DNA from: Candidatus Pacearchaeota archaeon
GTDB taxonomy: Archaea > Nanobdellota > Nanobdellia > Pacearchaeales > GW2011-AR1
Assembly (NCBI GenBank): GCA_027021195.1
Contig: JALUUW010000003.1
Coordinates: 4,843-68,842 of the forward strand
Length of the DNA: 64,000 bases
Direction: 5' to 3'
Shown: one piece after another, positions 1 through 53,169 of the stretch
Layout of the letters: every line of letters begins with the position of its first letter
Numbering within the stretch: position 1 is the stretch's first letter
Notes under the pieces: generated by a model
What the model was told of the DNA's origin: nothing
Seen by the model: only the letters and a program-made list of their open reading frames with translations
Database searches by the model: none
Position numbers and translations under genes: made by a program

Positions 1-587
1 CTGAAACTATTGAACCTGGGAAGATAGAAATCGCTATCTTTAATGATTTGAAAGAGTTTACAAAAAAATATGAATTTGAAAATAATAAATCTCTTCCTTT
101 TTTTGTTGTAGGATTTGCTGGAAAGAACGGCAGAATTTTTATCTTGGATAAAAAACTTTTTCCAAAACAAGGACACAGAGAAGAAGAATTTGAAAGAGTC
201 GTTGTTCATGAATTATGCCATGTATTTATCAGGAGAATGCTACACCCCAAACATACTTTCATTTGGATAGAGGAAGGGCTATGTGAATTTTTGTCTTTTG
301 GAGATTATCCTTTAAAAATAAAAAAAATAGTGGATTTTAGAGAGATTGAAACTTCTGAAGGATGGAGAAAGCATAATGCCTATCAACAAGCAAAAGGTTT
401 TTTTAAATATTTATCTAAAAATTATGGGGATAAAAAAATAGTGGAATTTATTAAAAAAATTAAAGTTACTTCTGAGAGAAAGGCATTTAAAGAGGTGTTT
501 GGAAAAGAAATAAATGAAATCCAAGAAAAGTTCTTTAACACCTTGAAAAATGAAAAAACTCTATCATCCGGGAATTCCTTGCAATGA
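1..587 (+). CDS. 5'-partial CDS: HExxH zinc metallopeptidase-like protein (gluzincin-like HELCH...EEGLCEF)
   Basis: Reading frame is open to the window edge. The track starts it at a TTG at 48. HELCH motif plus a downstream EEG..E. Overlaps the start of the rSAM gene. Confidence 0.45.
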   Translation, partial: ETIEPGKIEIAIFNDLKEFTKKYEFENNKSLPFFVVGFAGKNGRIFILDKKLFPKQGHREEEFERVVVHELCHVFIRRMLHPKHTFIWIEEGLCEFLSFGDYPLKIKKIVDFREIETSEGWRKHNAYQQAKGFFKYLSKNYGDKKIVEFIKKIKVTSERKAFKEVFGKEINEIQEKFFNTLKNEKTLSSGNSLQ

Positions 588-1716
588 GAATATAGTTCAA
601 AAAGATTTAGAAAAGAGTCTTATTAATTTTAGAAATAAGCGTATAGAGATTGTTGAATGTAATGAAGGGTTTGGAGTTTTTGATAAAGACTGGTTTTGGG
701 CAACAAAAGAAGAGTTAGATTCTCTTAAGAAATGCCCAGATATCTCAATAAGGTATTTTTTAGATAATGAAAAGTTCAATCATGAAGGATGGTTTTTTTA
801 TAACCCAATAGAACTTGGTATAGAATTAACAAGAGAATGTAATCAGCTGTGTATTCATTGTTGGAATGAATCTTCTTCAAGGGATACTAAAATGCCTTTG
901 AAGAAGGCAAAAGAAATTATTCAGGAATTTAGAAAAGGAGGAGGACAGAAAATAAAGATATCTGGTGGAGAACCATTATCATATTCTTCTTTAGATGAAT
1001 TTTTATTTTTTTCAAAAGAAGTTGGGATAAAAAAAGTAGATATGACATCTAATGGAGTGTTAATGAATAGGGAAAAAGCAAAATTTTTATCTACTCATCT
1101 AACAAATATATGTATAAGTATTCATGGTTCTAAATCAGATATACATGACGATATAACTTACAATAAAGGAAGTTTTGTAAAATCTATTAAAGCAATAGAG
1201 CATCTTCAGGAAGAAGGGTTAAACCCCATAATTAATTATACTGTTATGCAGAAAAACAAAAAGGACATTGCAGACATGATTGAATTAGGGAAAATTCTTA
1301 ATGTTAACGGGATAAAATTCAGTTGTTTAAAAAAGATTGGAAGAGCGAGAAATTTAGAGGTAATTTCTAAAGAAGAGGTAAATACATTAAGAAATTTAAT
1401 ATATACTAAATCGAAAGAGCTTGGAATTGAGTTAGAGAAGAGTGAATTGTATCCTGCAGGATATGTTCAAGGCATTAGTCAATCAAAATTTTATGGATGT
1501 AATGGATTAAGAACCCAACTATATATCTCTTCAGAAGGCAACGTTTACCCATGTAGTTTAATAAATGAAAGTATTGGAAACATTTACCAAGATTCTTTAT
1601 TTAATTTATGGAGAAGTAAAAAAGCTCAGGAATTTAGAAGATTGGATAATTGTATTAAAAATGATTGCAAAATAATTAGGGATTGTGGGAGAAAGTGTAG
1701 GGCAAGTTTGAAGTAA
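550..1716 (+). CDS. radical SAM / SPASM-domain enzyme (peptide-modifying rSAM family)
   Basis: CNQLCIHC = Cx3Cx2C radical SAM motif. SGGEPL glycine-rich SAM motif. C-terminal Cys-rich SPASM/twitch region (CNGL...YPCS...CIKNDC...CGRKC). About 95-aa N-terminal extension before the core. Confidence 0.8.
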   Translation: MKKLYHPGIPCNENIVQKDLEKSLINFRNKRIEIVECNEGFGVFDKDWFWATKEELDSLKKCPDISIRYFLDNEKFNHEGWFFYNPIELGIELTRECNQLCIHCWNESSSRDTKMPLKKAKEIIQEFRKGGGQKIKISGGEPLSYSSLDEFLFFSKEVGIKKVDMTSNGVLMNREKAKFLSTHLTNICISIHGSKSDIHDDITYNKGSFVKSIKAIEHLQEEGLNPIINYTVMQKNKKDIADMIELGKILNVNGIKFSCLKKIGRARNLEVISKEEVNTLRNLIYTKSKELGIELEKSELYPAGYVQGISQSKFYGCNGLRTQLYISSEGNVYPCSLINESIGNIYQDSLFNLWRSKKAQEFRRLDNCIKNDCKIIRDCGRKCRASLK

Positions 1717-3623: not shown

Positions 3624-3839
3624 CTAAGGAAAACAGCCTAATTTTTCATGTGCTTTTATTAAAAAATCCCTGAAATCTTTTTTGCTTTCCCATACAGGAT
3701 TTAACTTGTTCCTGATTAAATCAAAATCTATCTTCTTTAATCTTCTAATCTCTGCTAATTCACTTATCATTCTTTCGTACTTTTCTTTTGATATTTTTGC
3801 CATTTCCATAATAGCTAAATGGGGCTGATATTTATACAA
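3624..3839 (-). CDS. hypothetical small protein (71 aa), last gene of the rSAM operon
   Basis: ORF lies 23 nt downstream of the HExxH gene on the same strand. No recognisable motif. Confidence 0.3.
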   Translation of the reverse strand: MYKYQPHLAIMEMAKISKEKYERMISELAEIRRLKKIDFDLIRNKLNPVWESKKDFRDFLIKAHEKLGCFP

Positions 3840-4547: not shown

Positions 4548-5072
4548 TTAAGCTTTTTGTTTATTTTTTAATAGTAATAAAATAACATTATGTTTATGGG
4601 GGGGCAAATTATCATGCTCTTCAATGGGGGTCTCATACATTCCTTCCTTCATTATTTCCCAATCAGAATATAGGTTTTTTAATTGTTTTAATGAAGGATA
4701 AAACCTATTTTGTGCATTTCTTGCCATAGGGTCTTTATCTGAAAAACAGATGATAAAAGTATGTCCTTGCTCAGAGGTATGTGTTTGTATCTTTTTTAAA
4801 ATATTTTGTGCAGTTACCTTATCTAAAAAATGCAAAACTAACGAAGCAATTATTAAGTCATATTTCTCTTTGAATTCAAAATTTGTTATATCTTCATTAA
4901 AGAATTTAAAATTTTTCTGGGAGATTTCCATAGGTCTTTTATCTACTCCAAGAACTTTTACGCCTTGTTTGGCAAATCTGAGAGATTTATGCCCTTTCCC
5001 ACAACCCAGATCCAAAACATTTTGAGGCTGTAGTTCTTTAAGATATTCTTTGACTTTATCCCTTATTATCAT
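4548..5072 (-). CDS. class I SAM-dependent methyltransferase (TehB-like, Methyltransf_11/25)
   Basis: VLDLGCGKG motif I. Post-I acidic residue. DLIIASLVLHFL motif II/III. Confidence 0.75.
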   Translation of the reverse strand: MIIRDKVKEYLKELQPQNVLDLGCGKGHKSLRFAKQGVKVLGVDKRPMEISQKNFKFFNEDITNFEFKEKYDLIIASLVLHFLDKVTAQNILKKIQTHTSEQGHTFIICFSDKDPMARNAQNRFYPSLKQLKNLYSDWEIMKEGMYETPIEEHDNLPPHKHNVILLLLKNKQKA

Positions 5073-5108: not shown

Positions 5109-6170
5109 CTAATCTTGTGAGCTTCCCTGCACATATTCTTTAAAACACATAGGGTCTTTGGCCATATAATCTCCTGTTACTGCATAAGCAATTGCCCTAC
5201 ATCCTCTGCAGTGCACCACTTTATCACAAAGAGTATTCTCCCTCATTTTATTCAAATCTCTTAAATTTTGCATTACCTTGTTCTCTAAAATTAAATTACC
5301 TATTCCGTCACTTATGCGACCTATTTTAATAGGAAGTCTTCTACAAGGATAAACAGTTCCGTCCGATAATATTGAAAGCATTCTAAATCCTGCAGAACAC
5401 CCCCAAAGATATTTATTTTGCTCCTTTGCTGTTTTTATTACTTCGTTTTCTTTTTCCAATATTTGCCAAAGAACATCAGATTGAAGGACATTAATCTTAT
5501 CTCTATATTTTTCATTTAGTCTTTCAGTTTCTTTAACCATCTCGTAGATTTCTTTAGCATTAATAAATTCAGGATCTTTAATTCCTAAGTTTGAATCTGG
5601 ATTATAAGTTTTAAAACCCACTTTTTTAGCTCCTGCTAAAATTGCATTTTGGATAACATCCTCAAACTCTTTTTTATTAGACTGCATAAGAGTCATGGCT
5701 ACTGTAACATTTAAGCCTTCTTTTGAAGCATTTCTTATCCCTTCAATTGCCATATCATATGCAAAATCTTTTCTCCTAATTTTATTATGTGTGCGCTTAG
5801 ATCCATCAAGAGAAACTTGTATTGCTTCAACTTTTTGCTCCAAAAGTTCTCTAGCTTTTTTAGGAGTAATTAATGTGCCATTAGTTAACAAATTTGTTAT
5901 AACTTTTTTCTTACAAGCATATTCTAAAATTTCAAGATGATCTTCCCTCATTAAAGGATCTCCTCCCGAAATTGCGATTCTGGGTATCATCTCCCACCTT
6001 TTTGCTGTCTCTGCTAAATCATCTATCATTGATTTTACTTCATTTAAACTCATTAAATTATCATCTTGGATGTGGTCTACATTCCCTTCGTTGTTATGAT
6101 AACAATGGGAGCATTTAAGATTACAATCATTTGTGGAATCCCCTTGAATATATAAGTGTCTTTTAGCCAT
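5109..6170 (-). CDS. radical SAM / SPASM-domain enzyme
   Basis: CNLKCSHC Cx3Cx2C motif at residue 16 with no N-terminal RRE-like extension. ISGGDPL. C-terminal SPASM cysteines (CSAGF...YPCRR...CDKVVHCRGC). Confidence 0.8.
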   Translation of the reverse strand: MAKRHLYIQGDSTNDCNLKCSHCYHNNEGNVDHIQDDNLMSLNEVKSMIDDLAETAKRWEMIPRIAISGGDPLMREDHLEILEYACKKKVITNLLTNGTLITPKKARELLEQKVEAIQVSLDGSKRTHNKIRRKDFAYDMAIEGIRNASKEGLNVTVAMTLMQSNKKEFEDVIQNAILAGAKKVGFKTYNPDSNLGIKDPEFINAKEIYEMVKETERLNEKYRDKINVLQSDVLWQILEKENEVIKTAKEQNKYLWGCSAGFRMLSILSDGTVYPCRRLPIKIGRISDGIGNLILENKVMQNLRDLNKMRENTLCDKVVHCRGCRAIAYAVTGDYMAKDPMCFKEYVQGSSQD

Positions 6171-6801: not shown

Positions 6802-7386
6802 TCACTCAGATGTTCTGCTGATTTCATTCAGATATTCTGCTAATTGCCTCATATCATCAGGCTTCCCCTCTAATTCAGAATAATATTTATTGTCCATTTC
6901 AAAGTAAAACCTATTCACGAAATCAATAGTCTCTTTGTATTTGCTTATGCCTTTTTTCTCAACTAATTTATTAAAGCAGTCAATATATCTCATTAGGGCT
7001 TCAGTCAACTCCCTTGTTTCCTCGCTCTCCTTAAGCAGGGCTTTATCCATATTAGAATATGCTTTATCCAAAAATTCAATTACTTCTTTATAATTCTCAA
7101 CCCCTTTTTTTTCCACCAATTTGTAAAAAGCACACGCATATTCTGTTAAAGCCATAGTCAGGTCCCTGATTTCCGGGTCTTTGATTCTATGTATCTCTTT
7201 CTGGAATCTATCCATATCATCAAGTTCTTTTTCTATTGTCTCTTGGAAAGTTTGGTTTTTTATTTTTGACCGAAAAATGATTCCGTGTTCCACTAGACCT
7301 TTATGGAATCCTCTTAATCCTTTCAATATCTTTTCATTTAATTTAATTTTTTCTGCTTCTATCATTTTAATCTTACATAGTTCCAC
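6802..7386 (-). CDS. hypothetical coiled-coil protein with an internal ~42-aa tandem repeat
   Basis: Repeat LTxAL..Y...F.KLVEKKG...YKE.I.F seen twice in the translation. Confidence 0.4.
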   Translation of the reverse strand: MELCKIKMIEAEKIKLNEKILKGLRGFHKGLVEHGIIFRSKIKNQTFQETIEKELDDMDRFQKEIHRIKDPEIRDLTMALTEYACAFYKLVEKKGVENYKEVIEFLDKAYSNMDKALLKESEETRELTEALMRYIDCFNKLVEKKGISKYKETIDFVNRFYFEMDNKYYSELEGKPDDMRQLAEYLNEISRTSE

Positions 7387-7624
7387 CTACCCTTATGCAT
7401 TAATAAAAAAGACAAAAAAAGAAATTATCTTTCAGGTCTTATTTCTTTTCAGATCCTTCAGTCATTTCTAAAACCTTCTCATTTGGCATAGAGGTTTCTA
7501 CAAGACCCAAATGGAAATTCTCAAGACCTTCCAACATTTCCCTGTTAAATCCACATAGGGGCATTTTCTTTTCCTCCTAATTTAGTTAACTATAATATAT
7601 AATTACTTTATATAAACTATTCTA

Positions 7625-8668
7625 TTGGATAATTTTACAAAAAAGAAATATTTATATATTGGTACTTATTTTATGTATAAAATGATGAAATTGGATGTAT
7701 ATGACCGGAGAATTTTGGAGGTTTTAATAGAAAACTCCGAAGAGCAAATAAGCGCTATTGCCAAAAAGATAAGGCTCAGAAGAGAAAACGTTAACTATCG
7801 GATAAACCGCATGGTTAAATCAGGTCTGATAAAAGAATTTAACACAATCTTAAATGAAAGAGCGTTGGAGCTTTCCCACTATGTTGTTTTTGTAGAACTG
7901 ATTAAACTGGAAGAAAAAACAGAGCTGGAAATTATAGATTATCTCAGGAATAGCTCCTTTGTGAGCTGGATAGGAACTTCAGCAGGGAGATGGAGCCTGG
8001 TTTTTGATATAATAGCCTATGATAAAGGCTCAAATTTTGAAAAGATATTAACGGAGTTTCTCAAAAGATTTGGCGGAGATCATATTGAAAACTACGAGGT
8101 TTTGAGGCTGAATAAAAGAGATTATTTTGCATCAAAGTTAATTGGCAAAGAAAAATATTTCCATGAAAATGCTGAAAGCAAGGCCTCTCTTAAAAGATTG
8201 GACAATATAGATCTCAGAATACTTTCATTGCTAAACAAAAATTCAAGAAAAACTTTGGTAGAAATATCTTCTAAAATAGGCTTGACTCCAAATGGAGTTA
8301 ATAATAGGATTAAGGGCCTAATCAATAATGGCATTATAACAGGATATACGATTTCCATTAATTGGAAGAAATTAGGCTATGAGTGGTTCACAATACAAAT
8401 TAAGCTGCACAAGTATGGTGAAGAAGTATATGCCAAAATGGAATCTTTTTTCAGGAATCACAAGAAAGTGGTGTTTTACTACAGATATCTTGGAGGAAGC
8501 TGGGACTATGATATAGGGGTTTTGGTTCAGAATTCAGACGAATTAAGGGATTTTATCAATGAATTCAGGAGAAATCTTTCGGATGTTTCCAAAATCTCTG
8601 ATGTTTTTTTGACTCTTGAAGAAATAACAGGATATAAAATGCCTGAAGGGGTTTTTAATCCTTCTTAA
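7625..8668 (+). CDS. tandem (duplicated) Lrp/AsnC-family transcriptional regulator
   Basis: Two HTH_AsnC-like segments (LDVYDRRILEVL...ISAIAKKI and LDNIDLRILSLLNKNSRKTLVEISSKIGL), each followed by a RAM-like domain. True start is probably at an internal Met near 7673-7685. Confidence 0.6.
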   Translation: MDNFTKKKYLYIGTYFMYKMMKLDVYDRRILEVLIENSEEQISAIAKKIRLRRENVNYRINRMVKSGLIKEFNTILNERALELSHYVVFVELIKLEEKTELEIIDYLRNSSFVSWIGTSAGRWSLVFDIIAYDKGSNFEKILTEFLKRFGGDHIENYEVLRLNKRDYFASKLIGKEKYFHENAESKASLKRLDNIDLRILSLLNKNSRKTLVEISSKIGLTPNGVNNRIKGLINNGIITGYTISINWKKLGYEWFTIQIKLHKYGEEVYAKMESFFRNHKKVVFYYRYLGGSWDYDIGVLVQNSDELRDFINEFRRNLSDVSKISDVFLTLEEITGYKMPEGVFNPS

Positions 8669-8689: not shown

Positions 8690-10177
8690 TCAGCTGTTAT
8701 ACCCCTCAACTCCGATAAAATTTGTTGAGCCTCCGCAGTCTCCAAGAGAGATACATGCATTATTCATCTCTTTCTTCCATGACTCTGAAAGGCACTCACA
8801 GTTTTTCACGCACTTTTCCTTTCCAGTCAGCCCTTTTTCAAATACTACTGTGCATTGAGTGTCTGCTATAGAGCATAAAGATTCAGCCTCAGTGTCCTCT
8901 TCCCAAAAATTAAATCCAGGGGCATTTTCAGGAACGCATCCTATTGAAGACCATTTGCAGTCTCTCCTGTCTTTATTCTCGCAGTCTTTTTTGGTTGTTT
9001 GAGAGGAGCAGTCCTGCCATTTATTTACTCTGCATGCAGCTGTCTTAAATCCGTCAATGTCGTCCTGGACACAGACTTCCTGCCTGAAATCCGCGCACGG
9101 CTCTATGCTTACCTCTCCGTTATAACACACCAGCCTGAAATGCCTGCTTCCAGGAAGGCTTTTGTCTGTCCCGCTTGCATCTGCGCACCATGTTTCCCCA
9201 TGCTTATATTTTTTTCCAAGATAATTGCAGCTTAAGTCTCTGCAGATGTTGTCTCCGTAAGTTGGCTTTACTCTGTCCTTTCCTCTTTCATAGGATTTGC
9301 AGGTGCTTCCCAAAAAATAATCGCAGTTGCCGCACCCGGATGATCCGGCATTTCCGTCTGCTGAACTAAATCCGCAGCTCTTTTCCTTTCCATAAGCCTT
9401 TGTCCAGTAGTTTTTGTCTTTTATTTTTGAGGCATCATAAATATTCGCAGGATTTCCGCAGCTGTCAACAAAGAAGACTTCATCTCTTCCTTCAATGCAC
9501 GTTGTTCTTTCTGAGGGTCCGCAGTTTGTTGCAAGCTCTTCTGCAGAGCATAAAAGCCCCTCGTAAAACTCTACATTGGAATCAGGAGAGCTCGCTTCCA
9601 TTTTTCGGCACTCTCTTTTTGTTATGAACTTGCATGTTCTTGCCATCTCTTCAGGATCCTCAAACACACATGCTCCTTTGACATCTGAAGTAGCAGAAGC
9701 AATGCATTCTATCTCGCTTCCTATGTTTGTCCTGAAGTCAGTTTCGAGCCCGTAAAGGGACGAAAGCCTTTTGCATCTCGTCTGCGTTACAAAAGCAGCC
9801 TGGTCTCCTATCAGGCAGCACCCAAGAGAGCATTGGGGGATTTCATCCATCTTCCCTTCGTTCCATACCCCTCCTGAATCCTCGCATACTTTTTGAGGAG
9901 TGTTTTCCATGCAGGTTCCCTCCTGGCTGTCTATGCAGGTTCCAAGCTTGCAATAAGAGGTCGCCTCGCAGGAAGTCGGGACTTTTCTGTATGAGCTGTC
10001 GCATTTATCCTGAGGAGCGTTCTGGCACCATGCATTGTTTACTGTTTTTTCGCAGCAGTATGAAACCTCTCCGACAGCTGAGACAATTGCAATATATGCT
10101 ATGACTGCCAAAAAAATCAGCGCAACTCCTGCTGCTAACCCTTTTTCAAAAACATTATTTGTCTTGTTTCTTCCCAT
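8690..10177 (-). CDS. Cys-rich secreted or surface protein with a class III-like N-terminal signal (FEKG|LAAGVALIF)
   Basis: N-terminal charged segment, then KG and a hydrophobic stretch. More than 50 Cys. N-terminal domain is paralogous to the 1247-aa protein (CC..T....C...(K/E)LSS(L/F)YG). Confidence 0.5.
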   Translation of the reverse strand: MGRNKTNNVFEKGLAAGVALIFLAVIAYIAIVSAVGEVSYCCEKTVNNAWCQNAPQDKCDSSYRKVPTSCEATSYCKLGTCIDSQEGTCMENTPQKVCEDSGGVWNEGKMDEIPQCSLGCCLIGDQAAFVTQTRCKRLSSLYGLETDFRTNIGSEIECIASATSDVKGACVFEDPEEMARTCKFITKRECRKMEASSPDSNVEFYEGLLCSAEELATNCGPSERTTCIEGRDEVFFVDSCGNPANIYDASKIKDKNYWTKAYGKEKSCGFSSADGNAGSSGCGNCDYFLGSTCKSYERGKDRVKPTYGDNICRDLSCNYLGKKYKHGETWCADASGTDKSLPGSRHFRLVCYNGEVSIEPCADFRQEVCVQDDIDGFKTAACRVNKWQDCSSQTTKKDCENKDRRDCKWSSIGCVPENAPGFNFWEEDTEAESLCSIADTQCTVVFEKGLTGKEKCVKNCECLSESWKKEMNNACISLGDCGGSTNFIGVEGYNS

Positions 10178-10178
10178 T

Positions 10179-10967
10179 TTACACTAAAACTTCATCAACT
10201 CCGTATCCAGGAGGCCATGCAAGGCTTCTTGAAGCAAACTGGAATTTATTTCCGCTGTTGAGGTCTGTTAAAATATAGATTGTAGTGCCGTCGGATTGTT
10301 TTTTCTTCTCAACTTTCAAATCACGGTAATAGTTCATGTAGGTTGTTGTTTCAGCATCTCCGTATCTTGTTTCCCATGCAATTATGCTGTTTGCAATACT
10401 TAATAGTTCATAAAGATTATTGTTCAGGACTACTCTTAAATTGTCATAGCTTTCTGAAGATTCTTTTGTGAGAGTTAAGGAGTTGCTGAATGTAGCGACA
10501 ATTCTTTTTGGAAGCAGCTCAACATCAGGCTCTCCCTGCTTTAAGCTTACTTTATACCCTCTTTTCTCATAACTCTCTTTCATGGAATCAAAGCACTCTT
10601 TTGCCTTTCCTCTTATGTCTTTTTTTATCTCAGACTCAATGTGCTTTTTCAGCATTGGCTGCTGCACCACGCATGTTTTGTAGTACTCCTCAGTGTAGCA
10701 AAGATATTCTACTTTTTCATCATTATACAAAAAATAGTGTTCTGGCTTCAGGCTGCCACCCTGCATTGAAAGCCTTTCAACAGAATTTTTAATATCCTCT
10801 TCCATGCAGTTTTGAATAAATGCAGACGGATTCATGCTCTCGAGCCACAAATTAGACCCTATCTTTGGATAAAACAAGTAAGATAAAACACCTATAATCA
10901 CAATCATTATTGCAATTATGATGAAAATCGTCACTTGCCCCTTTCTTTTCCATGATATTTCCCGCAT
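10179..10967 (-). CDS. type IV pilin-like protein (class III signal peptide KRKG|QVTIFIII)
   Basis: Basic N-terminus, KG-Q cleavage-like site and a hydrophobic helix. Paralog of the 14771..15601 protein (SMQGG, YLCYT, PML..H). Start overlaps the downstream gene's start region. Confidence 0.45.
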   Translation of the reverse strand: MREISWKRKGQVTIFIIIAIMIVIIGVLSYLFYPKIGSNLWLESMNPSAFIQNCMEEDIKNSVERLSMQGGSLKPEHYFLYNDEKVEYLCYTEEYYKTCVVQQPMLKKHIESEIKKDIRGKAKECFDSMKESYEKRGYKVSLKQGEPDVELLPKRIVATFSNSLTLTKESSESYDNLRVVLNNNLYELLSIANSIIAWETRYGDAETTTYMNYYRDLKVEKKKQSDGTTIYILTDLNSGNKFQFASRSLAWPPGYGVDEVLV

Positions 10968-11025
10968 TTTTATTTAAAGGAAATCTGATTTATAAATGTT
11001 GATAGTTTTTAATGTTTTTAATAAA

Positions 11026-14000
11026 TTAAATTGATTCCGGCCTTAATATAATTGCACAGCCAGGATTTGTATTTCCTCCAAGATCTTCGCATTTGATGTA
11101 ATGCCTCTTTCCAGACTCCCACTCGCTGGTATGGGTTCTTGAAAATACATCTGTCATAGGCTTTGCATCCTCTCCTCGAATGTCAAATCCGCATCCATTA
11201 AAACTGTAATAGCATTTTGCATCTTCGTCTGTTATTACCTTTAACTCTCCCTCGCTGTAAGCCCTTACTATTTTTGGAGCTTCAGTGTCAAGCTCTAAAG
11301 TGAATACTGCATTTCCATAAGCAGTATTTCCTGCATCGTCTTCGCACTTTACATAAATATTGTAGTCTCCTTTCATCATAGTGTTGAAGTTCTGCTTATG
11401 CCTCCTGGAGAAGCTCTCAAAAAACAGAGTCATGTCATCATATCCTGAGAAACTGTAATAACAGGAAGACTTTCCATTCCTCGCCCCTCCGGAAGTCTCA
11501 ACTTCAAGGTCTACTGAGATTGGCTCGAACCATCTCTTGATTTTTCCCTGAGGGGTTATTGAGGTTATGTTAAGATTTGTCTCTGAAACATAGAGTGTAT
11601 AAACAAAATCCTCTTCATTTACATTTCTTGAAGTGTTCTCTGGAGGAAGCCATGGCTGGTCTTTGCACCTGATGTAAAAATTGTTTTCTCCTTCTGCAAG
11701 CCCTTTAAGAGTGGTGCTGCACTGCCATCCCAACAGCTCCCTCTCTGTTATTCCTGTTTTGCAATCCATTGAATTGCTCATTTCCTCATAGCTTTTTCCG
11801 CTTTCAGTGCTGTACCTGCATTCAGCAGGCTCACTTAGGTAAATCTGAAGAGGCGTTTCTGTAACATTATATTTCAGGAAACTTTCATCCTCTGGAACTG
11901 CAACTGTTCTTGAATGGTCTACAGCAGTTGTGTCTGGCCCTGAGTTAATGCAGAAATTCACCGTATACTCGTCAATATTGTAGTTTCCATGATAGTCCTT
12001 GCACTTAACATACATATTCATGTTTCCAAACATCTCTCTTATGTCTCCTGCAACATCATAGACGCTTAAGCTGTCCAGGCTTGGCATTGAAAATGAAAAA
12101 GTGTGGTTGAGAGTGAATGCATTTTGCTCAACAGGGTATCCTCTCATTTCGTCATATTCTGTTTTCTGGAAATCAAACTTGCACTGCGCAAATTCATCTG
12201 TTTTTAGGCTGAAGCTGACAGGAGTGAATTCAGGGATGCAGTTTCCGTTTTCCCTTCTTATCTCAACTCTTTTTGCATCTTCGTTATTGAACTTGTAGCC
12301 CTCGTCAATATCTCCTGCAGAAATTACAGGAGGATTGCTTTCATAAGGGATGCTCTCGCAGACAGGGTTTTCTGTTTCTTCATTAAGGATTCTGCATGCC
12401 TGCCCAAGGCTCTCGCATCTGTATCTTGTGCAAGGCATTCCTTTTTCAGCAAGCTCGTTGCATCTTTTGCAATTCTCTCCTCCTGCAGGAGCCTGCCATG
12501 GCATGCATGTAAACTCAACAACCCTTTCTTTTGTCTTTCCCCATCCAACAACTATGACATATACCATTATTATTACTGCTGCTGCCAGTGCGTATGTTCC
12601 AAAATTCAATCCCCATTTGAGCCATCCGACCTTCATTAGGCCAAGTATTCCTCCTGCAACCCCTCCTGCTACTGTCAGGACTGTTGCTGCATTTCCAGAC
12701 CTTCCCAAAGACTGGGCAATAAATGCTCCTGCAACTGTTCCTATTGCAAACCCTGCTGCTGCCCATGCGAATGCTCCTATGGATGTATATGTGGTAGAAA
12801 CAACTGCTTCAGATCCTGCAAAAATTGTCTTTGTTCCCAATAATGATGTTGTTGTTTCATAAGCTCCATAAGTGTAGGTGGTAGTTCCTATTCCCAAATG
12901 GCTAATGGCCATAATCAAGGTTCCAGCTCCTCCTGAAACTTCTCCAAGCTGCTTTATTACAGCCTGTATTTTATCCTCTTTAGGCTTTTTGCCAGAATTA
13001 CCGCTTATTGAAGAGATGTAATCATCAATTTCCTGGGGCTTTACATACTGGCCTTCTACAGGATCTGCATAATCCTTATATCTTTCCCATGAAACACTTG
13101 GAGACCGCGTTACTTTAATGTTATCGCTTCCCTCTCCAATATAATTGATATAGCTTCCGCAATCTCCGAGGCTGATGCAAAGGTCATTCATCTGCTCTGC
13201 AAAAACTCCTTTCTCGCAATTGCAGTTCTCAATGCACTCCCACTTTCCTCTTGAGTTTTTTTGGTATATGACAGTGCATTTTTGATTTGCCATTGCGCAT
13301 ATGCTGTCTGCAATAGAGCTTTCCCTTTGCCTGAACCCTCTTGGATATCTTCCAACGCAGACATCAAAGCTGAACCCGTCATCAATATTAATGTTTTTAA
13401 TCATGCAGTGCTTGTTTTTATTGCATTTTTCAGCCATGTTTCCCTGTGAATTGTAATCAAGGCACTTTGTAGCTTCGTTCACAACGCATGAGGCTACTGA
13501 AAAGCTTTTTCCGTTTTCCTCTATTTCTGATTCTGTGCAAAGCCCCCCTCTATAGTCACTGCATCCCTCTGTCTTTACTTCTCCATCAATACATATTTTT
13601 CTCCAGTGCCTGCTTCCTGCAGGATCTTTCCCTTCTCCTATATAAGAGTCATAAGCACACCAGCTCTCCCCGTTCTTTCTCTCTTTTCCGCCTGTCTCAG
13701 GAGATGCAGGGCAGTTTTTGTTTTTGCATATATAATCTCCGTCTTTTGCTTTTTTTCCTCCTGCCTCGTCTGAAGGCGCGCACATGCTTCCAAGGAAATA
13801 ATTGCAGTTTCCGCACTCTTCTGACTGAATATTGTCTGAATCAGGGTTGCAGCTTTCCTGTTTGCTTAACACCTTTCCGTTATTCCACGAAAAATCCCTG
13901 TCTGAGGAATAGATGTTTTCCCTGTTTCCGCAGGAATCAATCCAGTAAATCTCGTCTTTTCCCTCAATGCAGCTTATGCTTGCCTGCCTTTCACATTCAA

Positions 14001-14769
14001 CCCCCATTTCTTTAAATTCCGGATTTGAACATAGATGGTCTTTGTAAAAGTCTCCCTGAATGCTGAGGCATCTTGATTCTGTTGTAAATTCGCATCTGCC
14101 TCCTTCAAGGATGCATGCCCCTTCAAACTGGCTTGCAGAAAGAGCAAGGCATTCAAATTCTGTTTCAAGGTCTCTAAAGTCTTTTTTAAACCCGTAAAAA
14201 GATGAAAGTTTTTCACACCTTTTTTCTGTAACAAACTGCGCATTATCTCCCAAAACACAGCATCCTTTCTGGCATTCGCTTACTAAACATGATTCTTCAT
14301 TTTTCCATATTCCTCCTCCAGACTCGCATTTTTTTCTGGTGGATTTTGTTGTGCATAGCCCCTCATCTTCGTCAATGCAGCATCCTATCTTGCAGTCAGC
14401 AACTTCATCGCATTTTGTCGGAAGAGGATTGTCGCAGCTTTCAGTATCAAAAAACCCGACATCCTGGCATATTGCTCCGCTTTTTGTAACAGGGCAGCAT
14501 TTCCATGACTCTTCTTCTGCAGAAACAATTCCTATCTGTTTTATTGATAAAAATCCCACTAAGAGGCTTGCTCCTGCAGCAATGAGATTCCCAAGACTGT
14601 CTTTTCCTTTATCTCTTTTTATTATAATGGAGCTGCTGTCAGGCTGGCTGCTCATTCCTATAACATAGCTGGTTGCAGGACTCATATTAACCAGAAGGAA
14701 AATCTGGAACATAACAACAGCTAGCAAGCTTAGTTCTGTTTTTCTTTCCCTGATTTTTATTGACTTCAT
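11026..14769 (-). CDS. giant (1247 aa) Cys-rich surface protein with a central Gly/Ala-rich multi-TM region
   Basis: N-terminal hydrophobic segments. Cys-rich ectodomain homologous to the 8690..10177 protein. Residues ~600-730 have several hydrophobic G/A-rich helices. C-terminal Cys-rich beta-rich domains. Confidence 0.5.
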   Translation of the reverse strand: MKSIKIRERKTELSLLAVVMFQIFLLVNMSPATSYVIGMSSQPDSSSIIIKRDKGKDSLGNLIAAGASLLVGFLSIKQIGIVSAEEESWKCCPVTKSGAICQDVGFFDTESCDNPLPTKCDEVADCKIGCCIDEDEGLCTTKSTRKKCESGGGIWKNEESCLVSECQKGCCVLGDNAQFVTEKRCEKLSSFYGFKKDFRDLETEFECLALSASQFEGACILEGGRCEFTTESRCLSIQGDFYKDHLCSNPEFKEMGVECERQASISCIEGKDEIYWIDSCGNRENIYSSDRDFSWNNGKVLSKQESCNPDSDNIQSEECGNCNYFLGSMCAPSDEAGGKKAKDGDYICKNKNCPASPETGGKERKNGESWCAYDSYIGEGKDPAGSRHWRKICIDGEVKTEGCSDYRGGLCTESEIEENGKSFSVASCVVNEATKCLDYNSQGNMAEKCNKNKHCMIKNINIDDGFSFDVCVGRYPRGFRQRESSIADSICAMANQKCTVIYQKNSRGKWECIENCNCEKGVFAEQMNDLCISLGDCGSYINYIGEGSDNIKVTRSPSVSWERYKDYADPVEGQYVKPQEIDDYISSISGNSGKKPKEDKIQAVIKQLGEVSGGAGTLIMAISHLGIGTTTYTYGAYETTTSLLGTKTIFAGSEAVVSTTYTSIGAFAWAAAGFAIGTVAGAFIAQSLGRSGNAATVLTVAGGVAGGILGLMKVGWLKWGLNFGTYALAAAVIIMVYVIVVGWGKTKERVVEFTCMPWQAPAGGENCKRCNELAEKGMPCTRYRCESLGQACRILNEETENPVCESIPYESNPPVISAGDIDEGYKFNNEDAKRVEIRRENGNCIPEFTPVSFSLKTDEFAQCKFDFQKTEYDEMRGYPVEQNAFTLNHTFSFSMPSLDSLSVYDVAGDIREMFGNMNMYVKCKDYHGNYNIDEYTVNFCINSGPDTTAVDHSRTVAVPEDESFLKYNVTETPLQIYLSEPAECRYSTESGKSYEEMSNSMDCKTGITERELLGWQCSTTLKGLAEGENNFYIRCKDQPWLPPENTSRNVNEEDFVYTLYVSETNLNITSITPQGKIKRWFEPISVDLEVETSGGARNGKSSCYYSFSGYDDMTLFFESFSRRHKQNFNTMMKGDYNIYVKCEDDAGNTAYGNAVFTLELDTEAPKIVRAYSEGELKVITDEDAKCYYSFNGCGFDIRGEDAKPMTDVFSRTHTSEWESGKRHYIKCEDLGGNTNPGCAIILRPESI

Positions 14770-14770
14770 T

Positions 14771-15601
14771 TTAAAGCCCAGGAGGTATTATGCAGCTTCT
14801 CACTGCAAACCTGAATTTTTCTTTGCTGTTTTCATGCCTGACAGTATAGATTGTTTCTAAATCGCTTGTCTTGAATCTGTCTATATTGAATTGGGGATTA
14901 ATAATCATAAAGCCAAGATAGTCAAAATTGCAGAACCTTGCCTCTTGACTCAAAATCTCCTGCACAACAGCTGCAATATCATAAAATCTGCTTGGAATAT
15001 TCGCTTCAAGGTTTTCTTTTTTTGAGCTCTCCTCTGTTCTTGTAAGAGTAATCTCGCTGTCTGTTTTAATAATCACTCTCTTTGAGATTAAGTCAACTTC
15101 AAATCCCCTGTAATCCATGCTGACTTCATAATTCTGTTTTTCAAGATTGTTTTTTAATTCATCAAAACATACTTCCATGTCCTCTGCAATATAATTTTTT
15201 ATTTCTTTTTTTAGATGGCTCATCAGCATTGGCTCGTGATTTATGCAGGGAACATAATAATTTTGAGTATAGCATAAATAAGAGATATTTACAGGGTCTT
15301 CACCTTCAAACCTGAAGGTTTTGTAGAGCTCTGGTTCAATATATCCTCCCTGCATGGAGATTGTGCCAATAGCTTCCTTGACCTTGCCTTCAATACACGA
15401 GCTTAAAAAAGCTTCAGGATTTTTTTCAGGGCTCTTTCCTGTTTTTATAGGAGCTTCTCCCCTAAAGAATAAAAACGATGAAATTGCAACAACAACAATC
15501 ATGCCTGCAATTATGAAAATAGTAACCTGCGAGCGTTTTGCCTTTGGAAAAGCCCTTTTATTAAACAGCAGGCCTAAGGCACGAGTTCCTCTTTTTTTCA
15601 T
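14771..15601 (-). CDS. type IV pilin-like protein (class III signal AKRS|QVTIFIIAG)
   Basis: Paralog of the 10179..10967 protein. Stop overlaps the start of the giant gene. Confidence 0.45.
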   Translation of the reverse strand: MKKRGTRALGLLFNKRAFPKAKRSQVTIFIIAGMIVVVAISSFLFFRGEAPIKTGKSPEKNPEAFLSSCIEGKVKEAIGTISMQGGYIEPELYKTFRFEGEDPVNISYLCYTQNYYVPCINHEPMLMSHLKKEIKNYIAEDMEVCFDELKNNLEKQNYEVSMDYRGFEVDLISKRVIIKTDSEITLTRTEESSKKENLEANIPSRFYDIAAVVQEILSQEARFCNFDYLGFMIINPQFNIDRFKTSDLETIYTVRHENSKEKFRFAVRSCIIPPGL

Positions 15602-48703: not shown

Positions 48704-49543
48704 TTAAAAAATCTTATTCATCTCCTGAAGCCTTTTTCCCGAGCCTATTGAGCTGTTGAACATTTTCCAGAATATTCTCGTCATCCACTCTGTCCATTCC
48801 CTGTTTTTGATTGTATAGAACACAAAGAGCCTTTTATTCAGCTCTTTTTCTTTTCCTGTCGGCTCTTTCATTTCCTTCATGTTAAAGAGCTTATTGTCTA
48901 TTATTGTGGCTCTTAATGGCTGTTCTCTGTGCCTTATTTCCACTAATTCTTTTCCATGCTTGAAATTTAAAGACAGCATTTTTTCTATGTTCTTCTTGCC
49001 TGCTAAATCAACCCTGCAGACGACCTTAATGCTTATTCCATTTTTCACAAGCCTGTCAAGAATATCAAAGATGTCTGTTTTTCTGTCTTTGTAATTTATA
49101 AGCGAAAGGTTTCCTGAAAAAAACAGGATTTGCTTTTTTGCGCTTAACAGGATGTCTTTAAACTCCTTTAGCCTTCCTGATTTCATCTCGCTTTCCCCCT
49201 TTTTCATCCATGCCTCCTTGTCTTTGTCCGCGACATGCTGAAAAATGTCAAATGCAGAAAAGTCCCCCTTGTTTTTGCCCTGCATTATCTGCTCCTCCAG
49301 CTTCTCCTGAAAAACAGAGTGGTTCGCCTTTTCTACTGAAGCCCAGTAAACGATTTTCAGTGCTCCGCGAGTCCCTTCCCTGAAGGTTCTTGTTGCCAGT
49401 GTTCCGAATTCTTTTTCAATTTCCTGAACATACCTGTCAGCAGTTCTCCAGTTTTTTCCCAGGTGCTTGGCTATCTCCTGTATGCTTCTTGGCTTTGAAT
49501 AGGCAAAATCCTCTATTTTTTTTATTGTTTTAGTGTCAAGCAT
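48704..49543 (-). CDS. hypothetical HTH-domain protein
   Basis: N-terminal winged-helix-like segment (SIQEIAKHLGKNWRTADRYVQEIE). Confidence 0.3.
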   Translation of the reverse strand: MLDTKTIKKIEDFAYSKPRSIQEIAKHLGKNWRTADRYVQEIEKEFGTLATRTFREGTRGALKIVYWASVEKANHSVFQEKLEEQIMQGKNKGDFSAFDIFQHVADKDKEAWMKKGESEMKSGRLKEFKDILLSAKKQILFFSGNLSLINYKDRKTDIFDILDRLVKNGISIKVVCRVDLAGKKNIEKMLSLNFKHGKELVEIRHREQPLRATIIDNKLFNMKEMKEPTGKEKELNKRLFVFYTIKNREWTEWMTRIFWKMFNSSIGSGKRLQEMNKIF

Positions 49544-49648: not shown

Positions 49649-50224
49649 ATGAGAAAATACGTCTTGACAGGAGGGCCGTGCTCTGGAAAAACAACACTTA
49701 TTAATGAACTTAGAAAAAACGGCTTTTCTGTTTTAGATGAAACTGCAAGAGAGGTGTTAAGCTCTGCCCTAATCTCTGATAAGGTTATTAATAATAAAGA
49801 GAATTATGAAAAACTGGAGATTGAGATATTTCAAAGGCAGCTGAAAAAGGAAAGCAGCCTTTGCAAAAAAACCTTGCTTTATTTTCTTGACAGAGGAACT
49901 ATTGACTGCCTTGCTTATTCAGAGGTGTTTCTTGGATATGTTCCTGAAGAAATTGCAATCCACACTCATTCCGGAAGGTATGACAAAGTCTTTGCTTTAG
50001 AAAGATTGCCTTTTGTTAATGACGGAGTAAGAGTTGAGGGCACAGAAGAGGAAGCTAAAAAAATTCACGATTTTCTGATTAAGACCTATCTTGATTACGG
50101 ATATGAGCTGATACATGTTCCTGTTATGTCAGTAGAAGAAAGGATGGAATTTATTCTAAGATGCATTAAATCATGCTGTCTCAATAGATATCCTTCCCAA
50201 CAAGGATGTTTATCTGGAGATTGA
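49649..50224 (+). CDS. P-loop NTPase (AAA_28-like small ATPase). The 3' end may be frameshifted.
   Basis: Walker A GGPCSGKTT. An open frame with no start codon continues downstream (50160..50316) in another frame. Confidence 0.55.
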   Translation: MRKYVLTGGPCSGKTTLINELRKNGFSVLDETAREVLSSALISDKVINNKENYEKLEIEIFQRQLKKESSLCKKTLLYFLDRGTIDCLAYSEVFLGYVPEEIAIHTHSGRYDKVFALERLPFVNDGVRVEGTEEEAKKIHDFLIKTYLDYGYELIHVPVMSVEERMEFILRCIKSCCLNRYPSQQGCLSGD

Positions 50225-50316
50225 AGGAGACAAAAAATCAATCTTAAAGTGCCTGAGGGATTTTGGGCTGAAGCTTGAGGATATTGAAAAAAGGCCCTAT
50301 CAGGAGATAATCAAAA

Positions 50317-51624
50317 ATGCATAAAAACATAATAAGAATAAAAAAGGAAAAGAGCAATTACCTGATTTTCAGCTCTGAAGGAATGCTCCTCTCCCTGACT
50401 CGGGAGGAATTTGAGGCTTTTGAAAAACACGGAAAAAAGAAAAAAATCAATCCTGAATATAAGGAAATACTTTCAAGGCTTGCATCTTATGGCATTCTGG
50501 AATTTGAGGATTTTAAGCCAGATGATGAAAGAAAGACTTATGACCTGTCTCTTTTAAGGCACAACTCTTCTGAGCCTCTTTATCCTGCTCCTGTTCTTGC
50601 TCATTTGTCTGTAACCAATAAATGCAATATGTCCTGCGAGTATTGCTCTGTCAGGGAACTGCACTGCTCTAATGCTGAAAAAGAACTGACAACAGAGCAA
50701 TGGAAAAAAATAATTTCCGGGCTTGCAGAATGGGGTGTTTTTCAGATAGGGTTCACAGGAGGAGAGCCGACACTGAGAAAGGATTTGCCTGAGCTTGCAA
50801 ACCATGTTCATGAAAAAGGATGCGTATTTAACCTGACAACAAACGGCTGGCTTTTAGATGAAAAGCTTGTTAGCAAGCTTGCAGAATCAGGAATGAAGCA
50901 GTGCCAGGTTTCCTTAGACTCCCACATTAAAGAGACTCATGAAAAGCTGAGGGGAAAAGGCTCTTATGAGAGAGCCATAAAATCCATAAGGCTGTTAAAG
51001 GACAAGGGAGTTGCTGTTGGAATAGACTGCGTTGTTTCTAGAAATAATATCGGCTCAATTCCTGAATTTATAAAGTGGATTGAAAAAGAAGGGATTCCTT
51101 ATCTGACTTTAATAAAGCTGAAAAAAGGGGATTTAAGCAGAGAGTATTATAATTACCTAATGCCTGATTACCATGCATATTCTAGATTGATAAAAGATAT
51201 ATGCTGCAGGGAAAAAAACAAAAACCCCAATATAACTCTTGACTGCGGAAGCGTTTCAAACCTTCAGGCAGTTGCTGATAAAAATAAATTTCATAATCTT
51301 CCTGTTGCAGGATGCCCTTTAGGCCATCATTTAATATGCATCTCTCCTTCTGGAAATATTTTCAGCTGCGCTGCCCTTCTTGATAAAAGGCTTTGTCTTG
51401 GAAATGCCTTAAAAGATGATATTAAGGAAGTCTGGGAAAACAATTCTCTTTTAAGGGAATTTAGATTAATAAAACAAAAAATCTCAGGAAAGTGCAGGAA
51501 TTGCGAAAGGCTTGACATATGCAGGGGAGGGTGCAGGGGAATTTCTTATTCAATAAACAATGGGTTGTTTGGCTCTGACTCAACATGTAAATTTCAGGAG
51601 GTGAAAAATGGAAATACGGGTTGA
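50317..51624 (+). CDS. radical SAM / SPASM-domain enzyme with ~100-aa N-terminal extension (possible RRE)
   Basis: CNMSCEYC Cx3Cx2C. FTGGEPTL. C-terminal SPASM cysteines (CPLGHHLICISPSGNIFSC...CRNCERLDICRGGC). Confidence 0.8.
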   Translation: MHKNIIRIKKEKSNYLIFSSEGMLLSLTREEFEAFEKHGKKKKINPEYKEILSRLASYGILEFEDFKPDDERKTYDLSLLRHNSSEPLYPAPVLAHLSVTNKCNMSCEYCSVRELHCSNAEKELTTEQWKKIISGLAEWGVFQIGFTGGEPTLRKDLPELANHVHEKGCVFNLTTNGWLLDEKLVSKLAESGMKQCQVSLDSHIKETHEKLRGKGSYERAIKSIRLLKDKGVAVGIDCVVSRNNIGSIPEFIKWIEKEGIPYLTLIKLKKGDLSREYYNYLMPDYHAYSRLIKDICCREKNKNPNITLDCGSVSNLQAVADKNKFHNLPVAGCPLGHHLICISPSGNIFSCAALLDKRLCLGNALKDDIKEVWENNSLLREFRLIKQKISGKCRNCERLDICRGGCRGISYSINNGLFGSDSTCKFQEVKNGNTG

Positions 51625-51719
51625 CAAGCTTCAGGGCGGGCATTATGCTTTTTTAAGCGAGCTGCCTCATCTTGCAGAAAAGAGCAAACAGCTTTCTGAA
51701 AAGCTTGCTTTTGAAAAAA

Positions 51720-51842
51720 ATGAAAAGAAGCTTATTTGAGGTGGCATGGGAAATAACAGATGGGTGCAATCTTGAGTGCATCCACTGTTACAACCCCCAA
51801 AAAAAGAAGATATTTTTTAGGCCAGTTAAAGACCTTTGTTGA
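51720..51842 (+). pseudogene. remnant of a radical SAM gene (40-aa N-terminal fragment carrying the Cx3Cx2C motif)
   Basis: Translation MKRSLFEVAWEITDGCNLECIHCYNPQKKKIFFRPVKDLC then stop. Typical rSAM N-terminus that ends before the rest of the domain. Confidence 0.5.
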
Positions 51843-51854
51843 ATAACCCATAAA

Positions 51855-52475
51855 TCAAATGTCAAAAATCTTCTCTTTTCTTGAGACATTAATGATTTTT
51901 GTTTTTCCCATTTTTTCCTCAATCCCTTCAGCCTCATGAATGTGCGCGCTGATTAAGATGTCTGGCTTGAATTCTTTTACTGCCTTTTTTATTGCCTTGC
52001 TTCCTTTAAATCCTGAGAATTCCGCCTTGCTTCCATTGTGATGCATATGGGTTACCATAATTTTTTTATTGACTTTTTTAAGGGCATTGTTTCCTTTTTT
52101 CAGAGCATCAAAAATCTCTTTTTCTGTTGTATTAAACTCCAGTGCCCCTCCTGCCCCGAAAATACCCACTTTGTCTTTTACAAAAGAGTATCCATGAATG
52201 TTCTTGGTGTTTGGATACATTTCTGCAAGAAAATCCACTGTAGCAATAGATTCGTGGTTTCCATGAAGCAATAAAACCGGTTTTTCTGCTTTTGTGAAAG
52301 GGCCTACAATGTTTTTTACTGAGCTTTCTGCCAGAGTCAGGTCTCCTGCAAGTATTACTAAGTCAACATTTTCTTTTTTTGCCTTTTCAGCCAGCTTTTT
52401 CACTAGCCCAGTGTCTCCATGAATGTCTCCAACTGCAAGTATTCTTGTTTTTTTTCTGTTTCCTGGATGTTTCAT
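51855..52475 (-). CDS. metallophosphoesterase (calcineurin-like, YfcE/MJ0936 family)
   Basis: ILAVGDIHGD, ILAGDLT, LHGNHES and GHIHE-like motifs. Confidence 0.75.
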   Translation of the reverse strand: MKHPGNRKKTRILAVGDIHGDTGLVKKLAEKAKKENVDLVILAGDLTLAESSVKNIVGPFTKAEKPVLLLHGNHESIATVDFLAEMYPNTKNIHGYSFVKDKVGIFGAGGALEFNTTEKEIFDALKKGNNALKKVNKKIMVTHMHHNGSKAEFSGFKGSKAIKKAVKEFKPDILISAHIHEAEGIEEKMGKTKIINVSRKEKIFDI

Positions 52476-52910: not shown

Positions 52911-53052
52911 AAGCTTTTGGCTACCACGCCCCTGAAAGAGCCTTATGGGCAGAAGACAATAGCAGGCAGTATTTAGTTTAGGATTAGCCTGGATGCTTTA
53001 AGATATTTTTTATCCTATGCAATGCTTTTCTGTGTTTGGGATTTTATAAGCA

Positions 53053-53127
53053 TGGCCCTGGAGGGATTTGAACCCCCGACACCCAGATTAAGAGTCTGGT
53101 GCTCTAACCAGGCTGAGCTACAGAGCC
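53053..53127 (-). tRNA. tRNA-Lys (anticodon CTT), no encoded CCA
   Basis: Hand-folded. Acceptor GGCTCTG/CAGGGCC with one G-U pair. D-arm TAGCTCAGCCTGGTTAGAGCA. Anticodon stem-loop CCAGA-CTCTTAA-TCTGG. T-arm GGGGGTTCAAATCCCTC. Discriminator A. Confidence 0.85.
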
Positions 53128-53169
53128 ATAATTCAATATCAGAGAAGAAGTTTAAAAATCTTTACTAGC

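Follow-up and report, generated by a model that had tools for sequence, protein, structure and literature searches.

Why does a complete radical S-adenosylmethionine (SAM) gene stand beside what looks like the first few codons of another one? The question is raised by a 64,000-nucleotide stretch of DNA from a Candidatus Pacearchaeota archaeon (GenBank assembly GCA_027021195.1, contig JALUUW010000003.1, positions 4,843 to 68,842), here called the window. Its gene A (50317..51624, + strand) encodes a 435-aa radical SAM/SPASM enzyme fused to a domain resembling a RiPP recognition element (RRE; RiPP, ribosomally synthesized peptide with posttranslational modifications). Gene A is followed by a 40-codon open reading frame (ORF) at 51720-51842 (+), which begins MKRSLFEVAWEITDGCNLECIHCYNPQKKK and is called the stump below. 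A sequence-only reading of this DNA had listed both ORFs, together with a P-loop ATPase gene at 49649-50224; all three exist at these coordinates. The region probably represents a copy, now partly decayed, of a peptide-modification cassette that has three components, is conserved among DPANN archaea and belongs to the RRE-dependent radical SAM/SPASM peptide-maturase kind. The components are enzyme A, a second radical SAM/SPASM enzyme (partner B) and a short peptide with an invariant G-H-Y motif. The interest of the locus lies in this conserved cassette, which the stump exposed, and in a substrate candidate that had been overlooked.

The radical SAM gene stump and its deletion junction

The 40-residue product of the stump ORF was searched with phmmer against 1.84 billion representative proteins. 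Seven matches had an E value of 1e-3 or lower, the best of them 4e-8 and another 2.5e-7. One match was a radical SAM/SPASM protein of 323 aa, whose residues 1-29 aligned with residues 1-29 of the stump at 76% identity. The sequence-only reading had made its case depend on significant similarity in a database search, and these matches bear out that the stump is a genuine radical SAM N-terminus.

In related loci an intact gene, designated B1, encodes a partner protein of 316 to 323 aa. The stump corresponds to the first 30 residues of B1, with 70 to 76% identity overall; the N-termini of the B proteins of loci L001, L003 and L008 matched it at 73, 70 and 72% identity, respectively. Only codons 1-30 (51720-51809) are homologous to B1, the last 10 codons not. 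In the blastn alignment, window positions 51565-51813 corresponded to L001 positions 7246-7467 and window positions 51859-52067 to L001 positions 8326-8534, and L003 aligned likewise. Between these blocks, 858 bp of B1 (relative to L001) are replaced by about 45 bases without counterpart in the relatives (51814..51858), a loss of approximately 0.86 kb. The right-hand limit of the deletion is marked by a convergent metallophosphoesterase gene (51855..52475, - strand; Pfam Metallophos E 1e-18), which is the syntenic flank in the closest clade (L001, L003, L004 and L007). The end of the stump ORF is separated from the stop codon of this gene by 12 bases, and no further radical SAM-like sequence was found downstream in any frame. 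The possibility, raised with the original claim, that a sequencing error created the stop codon and hid a longer gene is therefore excluded.

The stump thus combines significant homology to one end of a gene, the orthologous position and the absence of the remainder, as a gene remnant does. Judged by its sequence, it is best described as the remnant of B1, left by a deletion that appears to have removed everything but the first 30 codons. In itself it is an ordinary gene remnant. Over these 30 codons, the proportion of nonsynonymous differences (pN) between the stump and intact orthologs was 0.13 to 0.19 and that of synonymous differences (pS) was 0.70 to 0.82. The same pattern was found between the intact orthologs themselves, indicating that the deletion is recent relative to the split of the lineages.

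Gene A is, as had been noted, one of three radical SAM/SPASM genes in the window, the others being located at 550-1716 (+) and 5109-6170 (-). The three proteins are only 23 to 27% identical to each other. An origin of the stump as a local duplicate of one of these genes was rejected; there was no DNA similarity, and alignment of the fragment with the three proteins gave a protein similarity of 32 to 46% that was confined to the Cys motif.

The stump might also be an artefact, with an intact B1 present in the organism and about 0.86 kb collapsed or mis-joined by the assembler. The window comes from a metagenome-assembled contig of 72,494 bp, which occurred as a single contig, and split genes occur in several related metagenomic loci as well. 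Against this, both flanks are collinear with the relatives up to the junction, the unmatched bases at the junction are not what a clean join would leave, and the window contains no repeat able to cause a collapse. An assembly artefact is on this evidence quite unlikely, and a true deletion of B1 is preferred.

Enzyme A and its partner enzymes

The description of the 50317-51624 product as a radical SAM/SPASM enzyme was confirmed with Pfam. The radical SAM model (PF04055) matched with an E value of 4e-28 and 99 bits against a cut-off of 29.5, and the SPASM model (PF13186) matched residues 333-397 with an E value of 2e-8 and 34.6 bits against a cut-off of 21.5. The CxxxCxxC motif found by the motif scan (C103, C107 and C110; 50623..50646) is invariant among 75 orthologs and is the predicted ligand of the radical SAM [4Fe-4S] cluster. 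Eight cysteines of the SPASM region (51244..51588), namely C310, C333, C351, C393-x2-C396-x5-C402-x3-C406 and C424, are invariant or nearly so in the alignment. Their number would suffice for two auxiliary Fe-S clusters and fits a full SPASM domain.

Orthologs of A form about 80 clusters with 40 to 70% identity across the entire length, and wherever a taxon is named, it is Woesearchaeota, Nanoarchaeota or "DPANN group" archaea. Homologs of the next rank are 32% identical and do not align with the N-terminal extension. The copy in the window is intact; none of the family's 39 invariant residues has been replaced. When the single protein was used as the query for a scan over genome contigs, only two distant bacterial radical SAM genes were found.

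The structure of A was predicted with AlphaFold (AF2) from an alignment with 75 orthologs, at a predicted local distance difference test score (pLDDT) of 92. Among PDB structures, the model matched that of the streptide maturase SuiB best, with a full-length alignment and a template modelling (TM) score of 0.70; PqqE, SkfB and anSME came next. The best partial matches among the NCBIfam models were likewise peptide maturases (WgkB, MftC, GeoRSP and PqqE), all below threshold; no curated NCBIfam model reached its cut-off for A or for any class of partner. The scores of A were 161.6 bits for MftC (TIGR03962; cut-off 265), 150 bits for PqqE (TIGR02109; cut-off 381) and 139 to 141 bits for AhbD/NirJ (TIGR04545 and TIGR04055; cut-off 500). 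By its domains, its auxiliary cysteines, these matches and its N-terminal domain, A has the architecture of a peptide maturase.

The N-terminal extension of A had been given as approximately 100 aa and described as RRE-like. Its length is close to that, since the CxxxCxxC motif at residues 103-110 leaves about 95 residues ahead of the core. Residues 1-92 (50317..50592) were also modelled alone (pLDDT 87). In the predicted model, three beta strands are followed by helices, and the best structural matches are RRE structures, consistent with a winged-helix-like RRE fold. The RRE likeness is thus upheld by the predicted fold but has no counterpart in sequence matches to PqqD or to a solved RRE: in Pfam, none of 19 A-type N-terminal domains matched PqqD (PF05402) at an E value of 10 or lower, and a profile search of the PDB sequences with the A N-terminal domains gave nothing relevant. 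RREs are often too divergent for plain hidden Markov model (HMM) searches, so that the missing sequence match does not exclude the assignment. As the sequence searches miss the relationship, the assignment holds at the level of the fold only.

For comparison, 22 further loci with an A ortholog were collected, giving 23 with the window. A second radical SAM/SPASM gene is located directly beside A in all 22 other loci, and the window is the only one of the 23 without a full-length partner sequence. The partners fall into three classes, B1, B2 and B3, which are mutually only 26 to 30% identical. B1 is located downstream of A, B2 and B3 upstream, and B3 has an N-terminal extension of its own. The partner is exchangeable, because its class differs among the window's close relatives, being B1 in L001 and L003 and B2 in L004 and L007. 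The gene order in L001/L002 and L003 is topoisomerase, a 279-aa gene on the opposite strand, AAA_28 (in L003), A, the small ORF of the G-H-Y peptide, B1 (316 to 318 aa) and the convergent phosphoesterase gene. The window shares this order. As the deletion of approximately 0.86 kb took B1 beyond its 30th codon, at most the A-dependent step would be possible in the genome of the window. Because A keeps every invariant residue although B1 is gone, either A alone yields a partial product or the cassette is only beginning to decay.

Cassette genes are interrupted in other loci, too. B2 of L007 contains an in-frame TAG (4585-4587) at the position where L004 has Tyr, B3 is frameshifted in L020 and L022, A is frameshifted in L023, and the B1 of P0153 is truncated to 102 aa. 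These interruptions could be due to recurrent decay or to assembly errors.

The best NCBIfam scores of the partner classes were obtained with the AhbD and NirJ2 models (140 to 184 bits), and some A orthologs have been named "AdoMet-dependent heme synthase" by the Joint Genome Institute (JGI). Together with the lack of a conserved protease or exporter nearby, these matches would be compatible with A and its partner being AhbD/NirJ-like enzymes of small-molecule or tetrapyrrole metabolism and the small ORF being an unrelated microprotein or a small subunit. Yet the scores of the B classes against the AhbD/NirJ models (99 to 184 bits overall) are all far below the curated cut-off of 500 bits, being less than 40% of the required score, and A's own best matches are peptide maturases. 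Furthermore, the heme enzymes do not have the RRE-fold domain that A has, and the small ORF stays with the cassette through three gene orders. A tetrapyrrole function is therefore unlikely, and peptide modification is the preferred reading of the enzyme pair.

The G-H-Y peptide as a candidate substrate

The remark in the sequence-only reading that there is no obvious Cys-rich precursor is literally true, but a conserved, Cys-free precursor candidate at 51608-51739 (+) was overlooked. This ORF starts 4 nt past a GGAGGTG ribosome-binding site read from the sequence within the 3' end of gene A (51597..51603, +), and it overlaps the last 17 nt of A including the stop codon. GGAGGTG likewise precedes the small ORF in most related loci. 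The peptide of the window has 43 aa, the first 22 being MEIRVDKLQGGHYAFLSELPHL and the other 21 forming a tail. The conserved core is encoded at 51608-51673 (+), with the invariant G-H-Y at 51638-51646.

A peptide of the MEIRVDKLQGGHYAFLSELPHL type directly follows A in the window and in 15 other loci, and it is encoded directly upstream of B3-A in L010; a precursor-like ORF is thus conserved beside the putative maturase in 17 of the 18 loci that could be assessed. In L010, which has the most distant A ortholog among the loci examined, the peptide is MEIIIDKMQGGHYHFFTLLPRI (3655-3723), and its position is that of the classical precursor-first order. No model of Pfam, NCBIfam or Rfam matched the peptide or its region. 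A profile of the peptide was searched against 5.8 billion proteins and matched 32 clusters with E values down to 2e-13, all annotated as hypothetical and all from Nanoarchaeota or Woesearchaeota. Many of the matched peptides come from the very contigs that carry A orthologs.

Motif statistics were taken from 40 distinct peptides over 22 aligned positions, in which the core x-G-H-Y-[ASC]-[FY]-[LF]-x-x-L-P is conserved. The G, the H, the Y and the downstream L are invariant (40/40), and a P follows that L in 38 peptides. Asp is found five residues ahead of the G in 36 and Glu ahead of LP in 35 of the peptides. The approximately 10 residues ahead of G-H-Y alternate between hydrophobic and polar (e.g., EIRVDKL). 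Cysteine is absent from 35 of the 40 peptides in the aligned positions, and the 5 cysteines that occur there are at variable positions; a few long forms carry one cysteine in the variable tail. Conservation of the core is no lower than that of the enzyme: the peptides of the window and L010 share 13 of 22 residues, and their A proteins are 40% identical.

The substitutions are those of a protein-coding sequence. A comparison of the peptide ORFs of the window and L001 over 20 codons gave 11 synonymous and 2 nonsynonymous differences. In the reading frame of the peptide, overall pS was 0.81 and pN 0.32; in the shifted frames the relation was reversed (pS, 0.31 to 0.39; pN, 0.43 to 0.46). The peptide is under purifying selection and coding in exactly one frame. 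A noncoding regulatory RNA or DNA element, for instance an attenuator between A and B, could have been suspected from the shortness of the stretch, the shortest versions of which were missed by most annotations, and from its overlap with the 3' end of A. This possibility is highly improbable in view of the coding-like substitutions in a single frame and the ribosome-binding site at the correct spacing; moreover, the ORF is retained regardless of whether it is flanked by A and B, comes last or comes first, and Rfam finds nothing here. Where the small ORF is the last gene of the operon (L004, L007 and L009), it is followed by a hairpin.

The peptides range from 22 to 72 aa in length, with 2 to 50 residues past the LP motif. 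The tails of the close relatives have 2 to 9 aa, compared with 21 aa in the window. The tail of the window begins at the position of the stop codon of L003 (TAA in L003, GAA in the window), indicating that it is probably an accidental read-through caused by the loss of the stop codon. We infer decay of the peptide gene from this with reserve, since tail length varies from 2 to 50 aa in the family. In the peptide family (P0121 to P0152), long forms (39 to 72 aa) have variable tails, yet 19 of 23 have a Tyr among their five C-terminal residues, and Tyr makes up 6.7% of tail residues; the tail of the window has no such Tyr. This Tyr of the long forms may mark another conserved site of modification or recognition.

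The conservation of the peptide beside A suggests that it is the likely substrate of the cassette. We infer a mode of docking, a type of chemistry, an order of the two enzymes and a fate of the product as follows. The short ORF, preceded by a GGAGGTG of its own and in most cases overlapping the stop codon of A, would be translated into a peptide of 22 to 72 aa. The N-terminal residues of this peptide, about 10 in number, would dock as a beta strand onto the RRE domain of A. A would then cleave SAM at the CxxxCxxC cluster and, aided by the two SPASM auxiliary clusters, carry out a radical modification of the invariant G-H-Y-x-aromatic-hydrophobic-x-x-L-P core. The likeliest reaction would be a cross-link or a side-chain modification in the His-Tyr/aromatic stretch. 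The adjacent second radical SAM/SPASM enzyme, which is B1, B2 or B3 depending on the lineage, would perform a further step.

Several characterized systems resemble this scheme in part. In the streptide (KxxxW) system, SuiB/StrB resembles A in carrying, in one chain, a radical SAM core preceded by an RRE and followed by a SPASM domain with two auxiliary clusters. SuiB (5v1s/5v1t) is the best full-length structural match of A (TM score, 0.70), and its short precursor SuiA/StrA is encoded beside the enzyme, as in the cassette. However, A is only about 20% identical to SuiB and reaches 87 bits with TIGR04080 (cut-off, 500), the G-H-Y peptide has neither Trp nor a KxxxW motif, and the cassette differs further in its second radical SAM partner and its archaeal hosts.

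The systems for pyrroloquinoline quinone (PQQ; PqqE, PqqD and PqqA) and mycofactocin (MftC, MftB and MftA) share with the cassette a radical SAM/SPASM enzyme and a PqqD-type RRE acting on a very short peptide (about 22 to 30 aa), in which the residues that become modified, a tyrosine among them, are strictly conserved. The NCBIfam scores of A for MftC (161 bits) and PqqE (150 bits) are among its best, yet below the cut-offs of 265 and 381 bits, and PqqE (6c8v) is the fifth structural match. In contrast to these systems, the RRE is fused to A, not separate, and the cassette has no conserved downstream cofactor-processing genes. The peptide also lacks the E-x3-Y motif of PqqA, as in the 40 aligned peptides no conserved Tyr has a conserved Glu four residues away on its N-terminal side, the sole conserved Glu being located five residues after the invariant Tyr. 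It lacks the C-terminal Val-Tyr of MftA as well, in which no peptide ends. In the conservation of its peptide core, the cassette nevertheless resembles the peptide-derived cofactors PQQ and mycofactocin more than the variable antimicrobial RiPPs.

Two radical SAM/SPASM genes beside a precursor gene are also found in the cassettes of thuricin CD (TrnC/TrnD; PMC12093266), ruminococcin C (RumMC1/MC2; PMC8188230) and SynChlorMet (ScmE/ScmF). The peptides of those cassettes are Cys-rich and thioether linked, whereas the G-H-Y peptides are mostly Cys-free in the aligned core (35/40). Other differences are that an RRE is present in just one enzyme of the pair when the partner is B1 or B2 and that the partner class is swapped between close relatives. 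Cross-linking of aromatic side chains by radical SAM/SPASM enzymes is known from DarE, XncB and the dynobactin enzyme, and dynobactin has an N-Csp3 His-Tyr link (PMC10288494). The G-H-Y peptide likewise has an invariant His and Tyr followed by an aromatic residue. Its His and Tyr are adjacent, however, and the score with the DynA model (NF041298) is 96 bits against a cut-off of 450. The resemblance to dynobactin is a lead and a precedent, not evidence.

The combination of an RRE-radical SAM-SPASM enzyme, another radical SAM enzyme and a short precursor is an architecture already known. None of the protein families of the cassette, be it A, the partner classes or the G-H-Y peptide, is covered by a curated family, and no description of the enzymes, the partner classes or the motif was found in the searchable literature. 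The genomes of DPANN archaea are very small and encode few biosynthetic pathways. The cassette probably does something important for these archaea, because its two enzymes and its own strictly conserved peptide are kept in lineages that share only about 40% identity in the enzymes. In a survey of archaeal RiPP clusters, radical SAM-type clusters are listed for DPANN genomes, but none is characterized there (PMC12144867).

Tentatively, and with considerable doubt, the G-H-Y peptide could be the precursor of a conserved, hitherto undescribed, DPANN-specific molecule made from it by two radical SAM/SPASM enzymes, serving as a cofactor in the manner of PQQ and mycofactocin or as a signal, with the exchangeable partner diversifying or completing the product. 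If so, genomes without a partner, such as that of the window, would be natural knockouts showing that the second step is dispensable. For biochemistry, the cassette supplies a defined substrate candidate and a pair of enzymes, and the window is a natural example of the loss of a partner gene.

Neighbouring genes and other features of the window

The ORF at 49649-50224 (+), upstream of A, was correctly called a P-loop ATPase. It matches AAA_28 (NadR-kinase-like P-loop NTPases) over the full length of the profile (positions 1-164 of 164) at a Pfam E value of 6e-35 and 121 bits against a cut-off of 27, and it has a Walker A motif, GGPCSGKT, at residues 8-15 (49670-49693, +). The ORF extends about 15 to 20 codons past the end of its homology. 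Only 4 of the 23 loci (the window, L003, L021 and L025) have AAA_28 next to the cassette, and the gene is an occasional accessory rather than a core part of it.

Its presence beside A recalls viperin-with-kinase antiviral modules. Models of PADLOC for prokaryotic viperins (pVip), including one for "viperins associated with kinases", matched the core of A with E values of 1e-22 to 2e-25. The matches span only the generic radical SAM core (residues 98-281), at about half the scores of the peptide-maturase models. Viperins are not known to have SPASM or RRE domains; A has both and does not qualify as a viperin. The small number of loci with an adjacent AAA_28 gene also argues against such a module, as does a scan of viral contigs, which yielded no A ortholog and reached at most 36% identity, in a stretch of 139 residues within the generic core. 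An antiviral function of this type is thus very improbable, and A is better regarded as a peptide maturase.

The divergent neighbour gene of the cassette (48704..49543, - strand) encodes the 279-aa protein, which is kept at the same position and in the same orientation in 9 loci, with 32 to 70% identity. The protein matched no Pfam family and no PDB sequence. Weak matches to HTH_23 and HTH_11 at residues 17-45 point to a possible regulator.

Between AAA_28 and A there is an open frame of 54 codons (50160-50321), whose stop codon overlaps the ATG of A and which has no start codon giving 30 aa or more. Its interpretation as a fragment of a CYTH domain was rejected, as it has no Pfam match and is not conserved in the other loci. 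A weak match to residues 22-54 of B1-type radical SAM proteins (12/34) was not significant.

The turnover of the radical SAM locus had been linked to the tRNA-Lys. Turnover did take place, in that the B1 partner was lost by deletion, but the tRNA is not involved. Two genes that are syntenic with L007, the phosphoesterase gene and a small winged-helix gene, separate the tRNA-Lys(CTT) gene (53052-53128, - strand) from the cassette; its surroundings contain neither an integrase gene nor other mobile-element genes, and no tRNA is present at the matching position in the related loci examined. In the window the tRNA gene sits between the winged-helix gene and a TFS-like gene. In place of the tRNA-Lys, the corresponding interval of L007 (7755-9977) contains an 84-aa ORF and a gene for CTP synthase, indicating that local gene content varies independently of the radical SAM cassette.

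The left edge of the window (1-1716) cuts a second, unrelated peptide cassette, for which L171 and L172 served as comparison loci. An HExxH (BSP-like) peptidase gene is truncated there (ORF 48-587, with an open frame to base 3) and is followed by the radical SAM/SPASM gene at 550-1716. Orthologs of the latter gene (41 to 46% identical) are part of a cassette that consists of a 436-aa radical SAM enzyme, a Cys-rich peptide of 57 to 64 aa, an HExxH peptidase and then the radical SAM enzyme in question. The Cys-rich peptide ends with ...YSCDAGCKNCHCASY. By analogy, the genes for the 436-aa enzyme and the Cys-rich peptide would be located just outside the window in the source genome. The 436-aa enzyme is only 24 to 26% identical to A and not its ortholog. 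The 550-1716 gene was rejected as a relocated partner of A and is no stand-in for B1, because its orthologs occupy this different conserved cassette.

The gene at 5109-6170 (-) encodes a radical SAM/SPASM protein of 353 aa without an N-terminal extension, and its best partial matches, the ACGX-system and NirJ2 models, are far below their cut-offs. The G+C content is 0.40 to 0.47 at positions 9000-15000, a region that includes a 1247-aa ORF (11026-14769, - strand), and about 0.35 elsewhere in the window.

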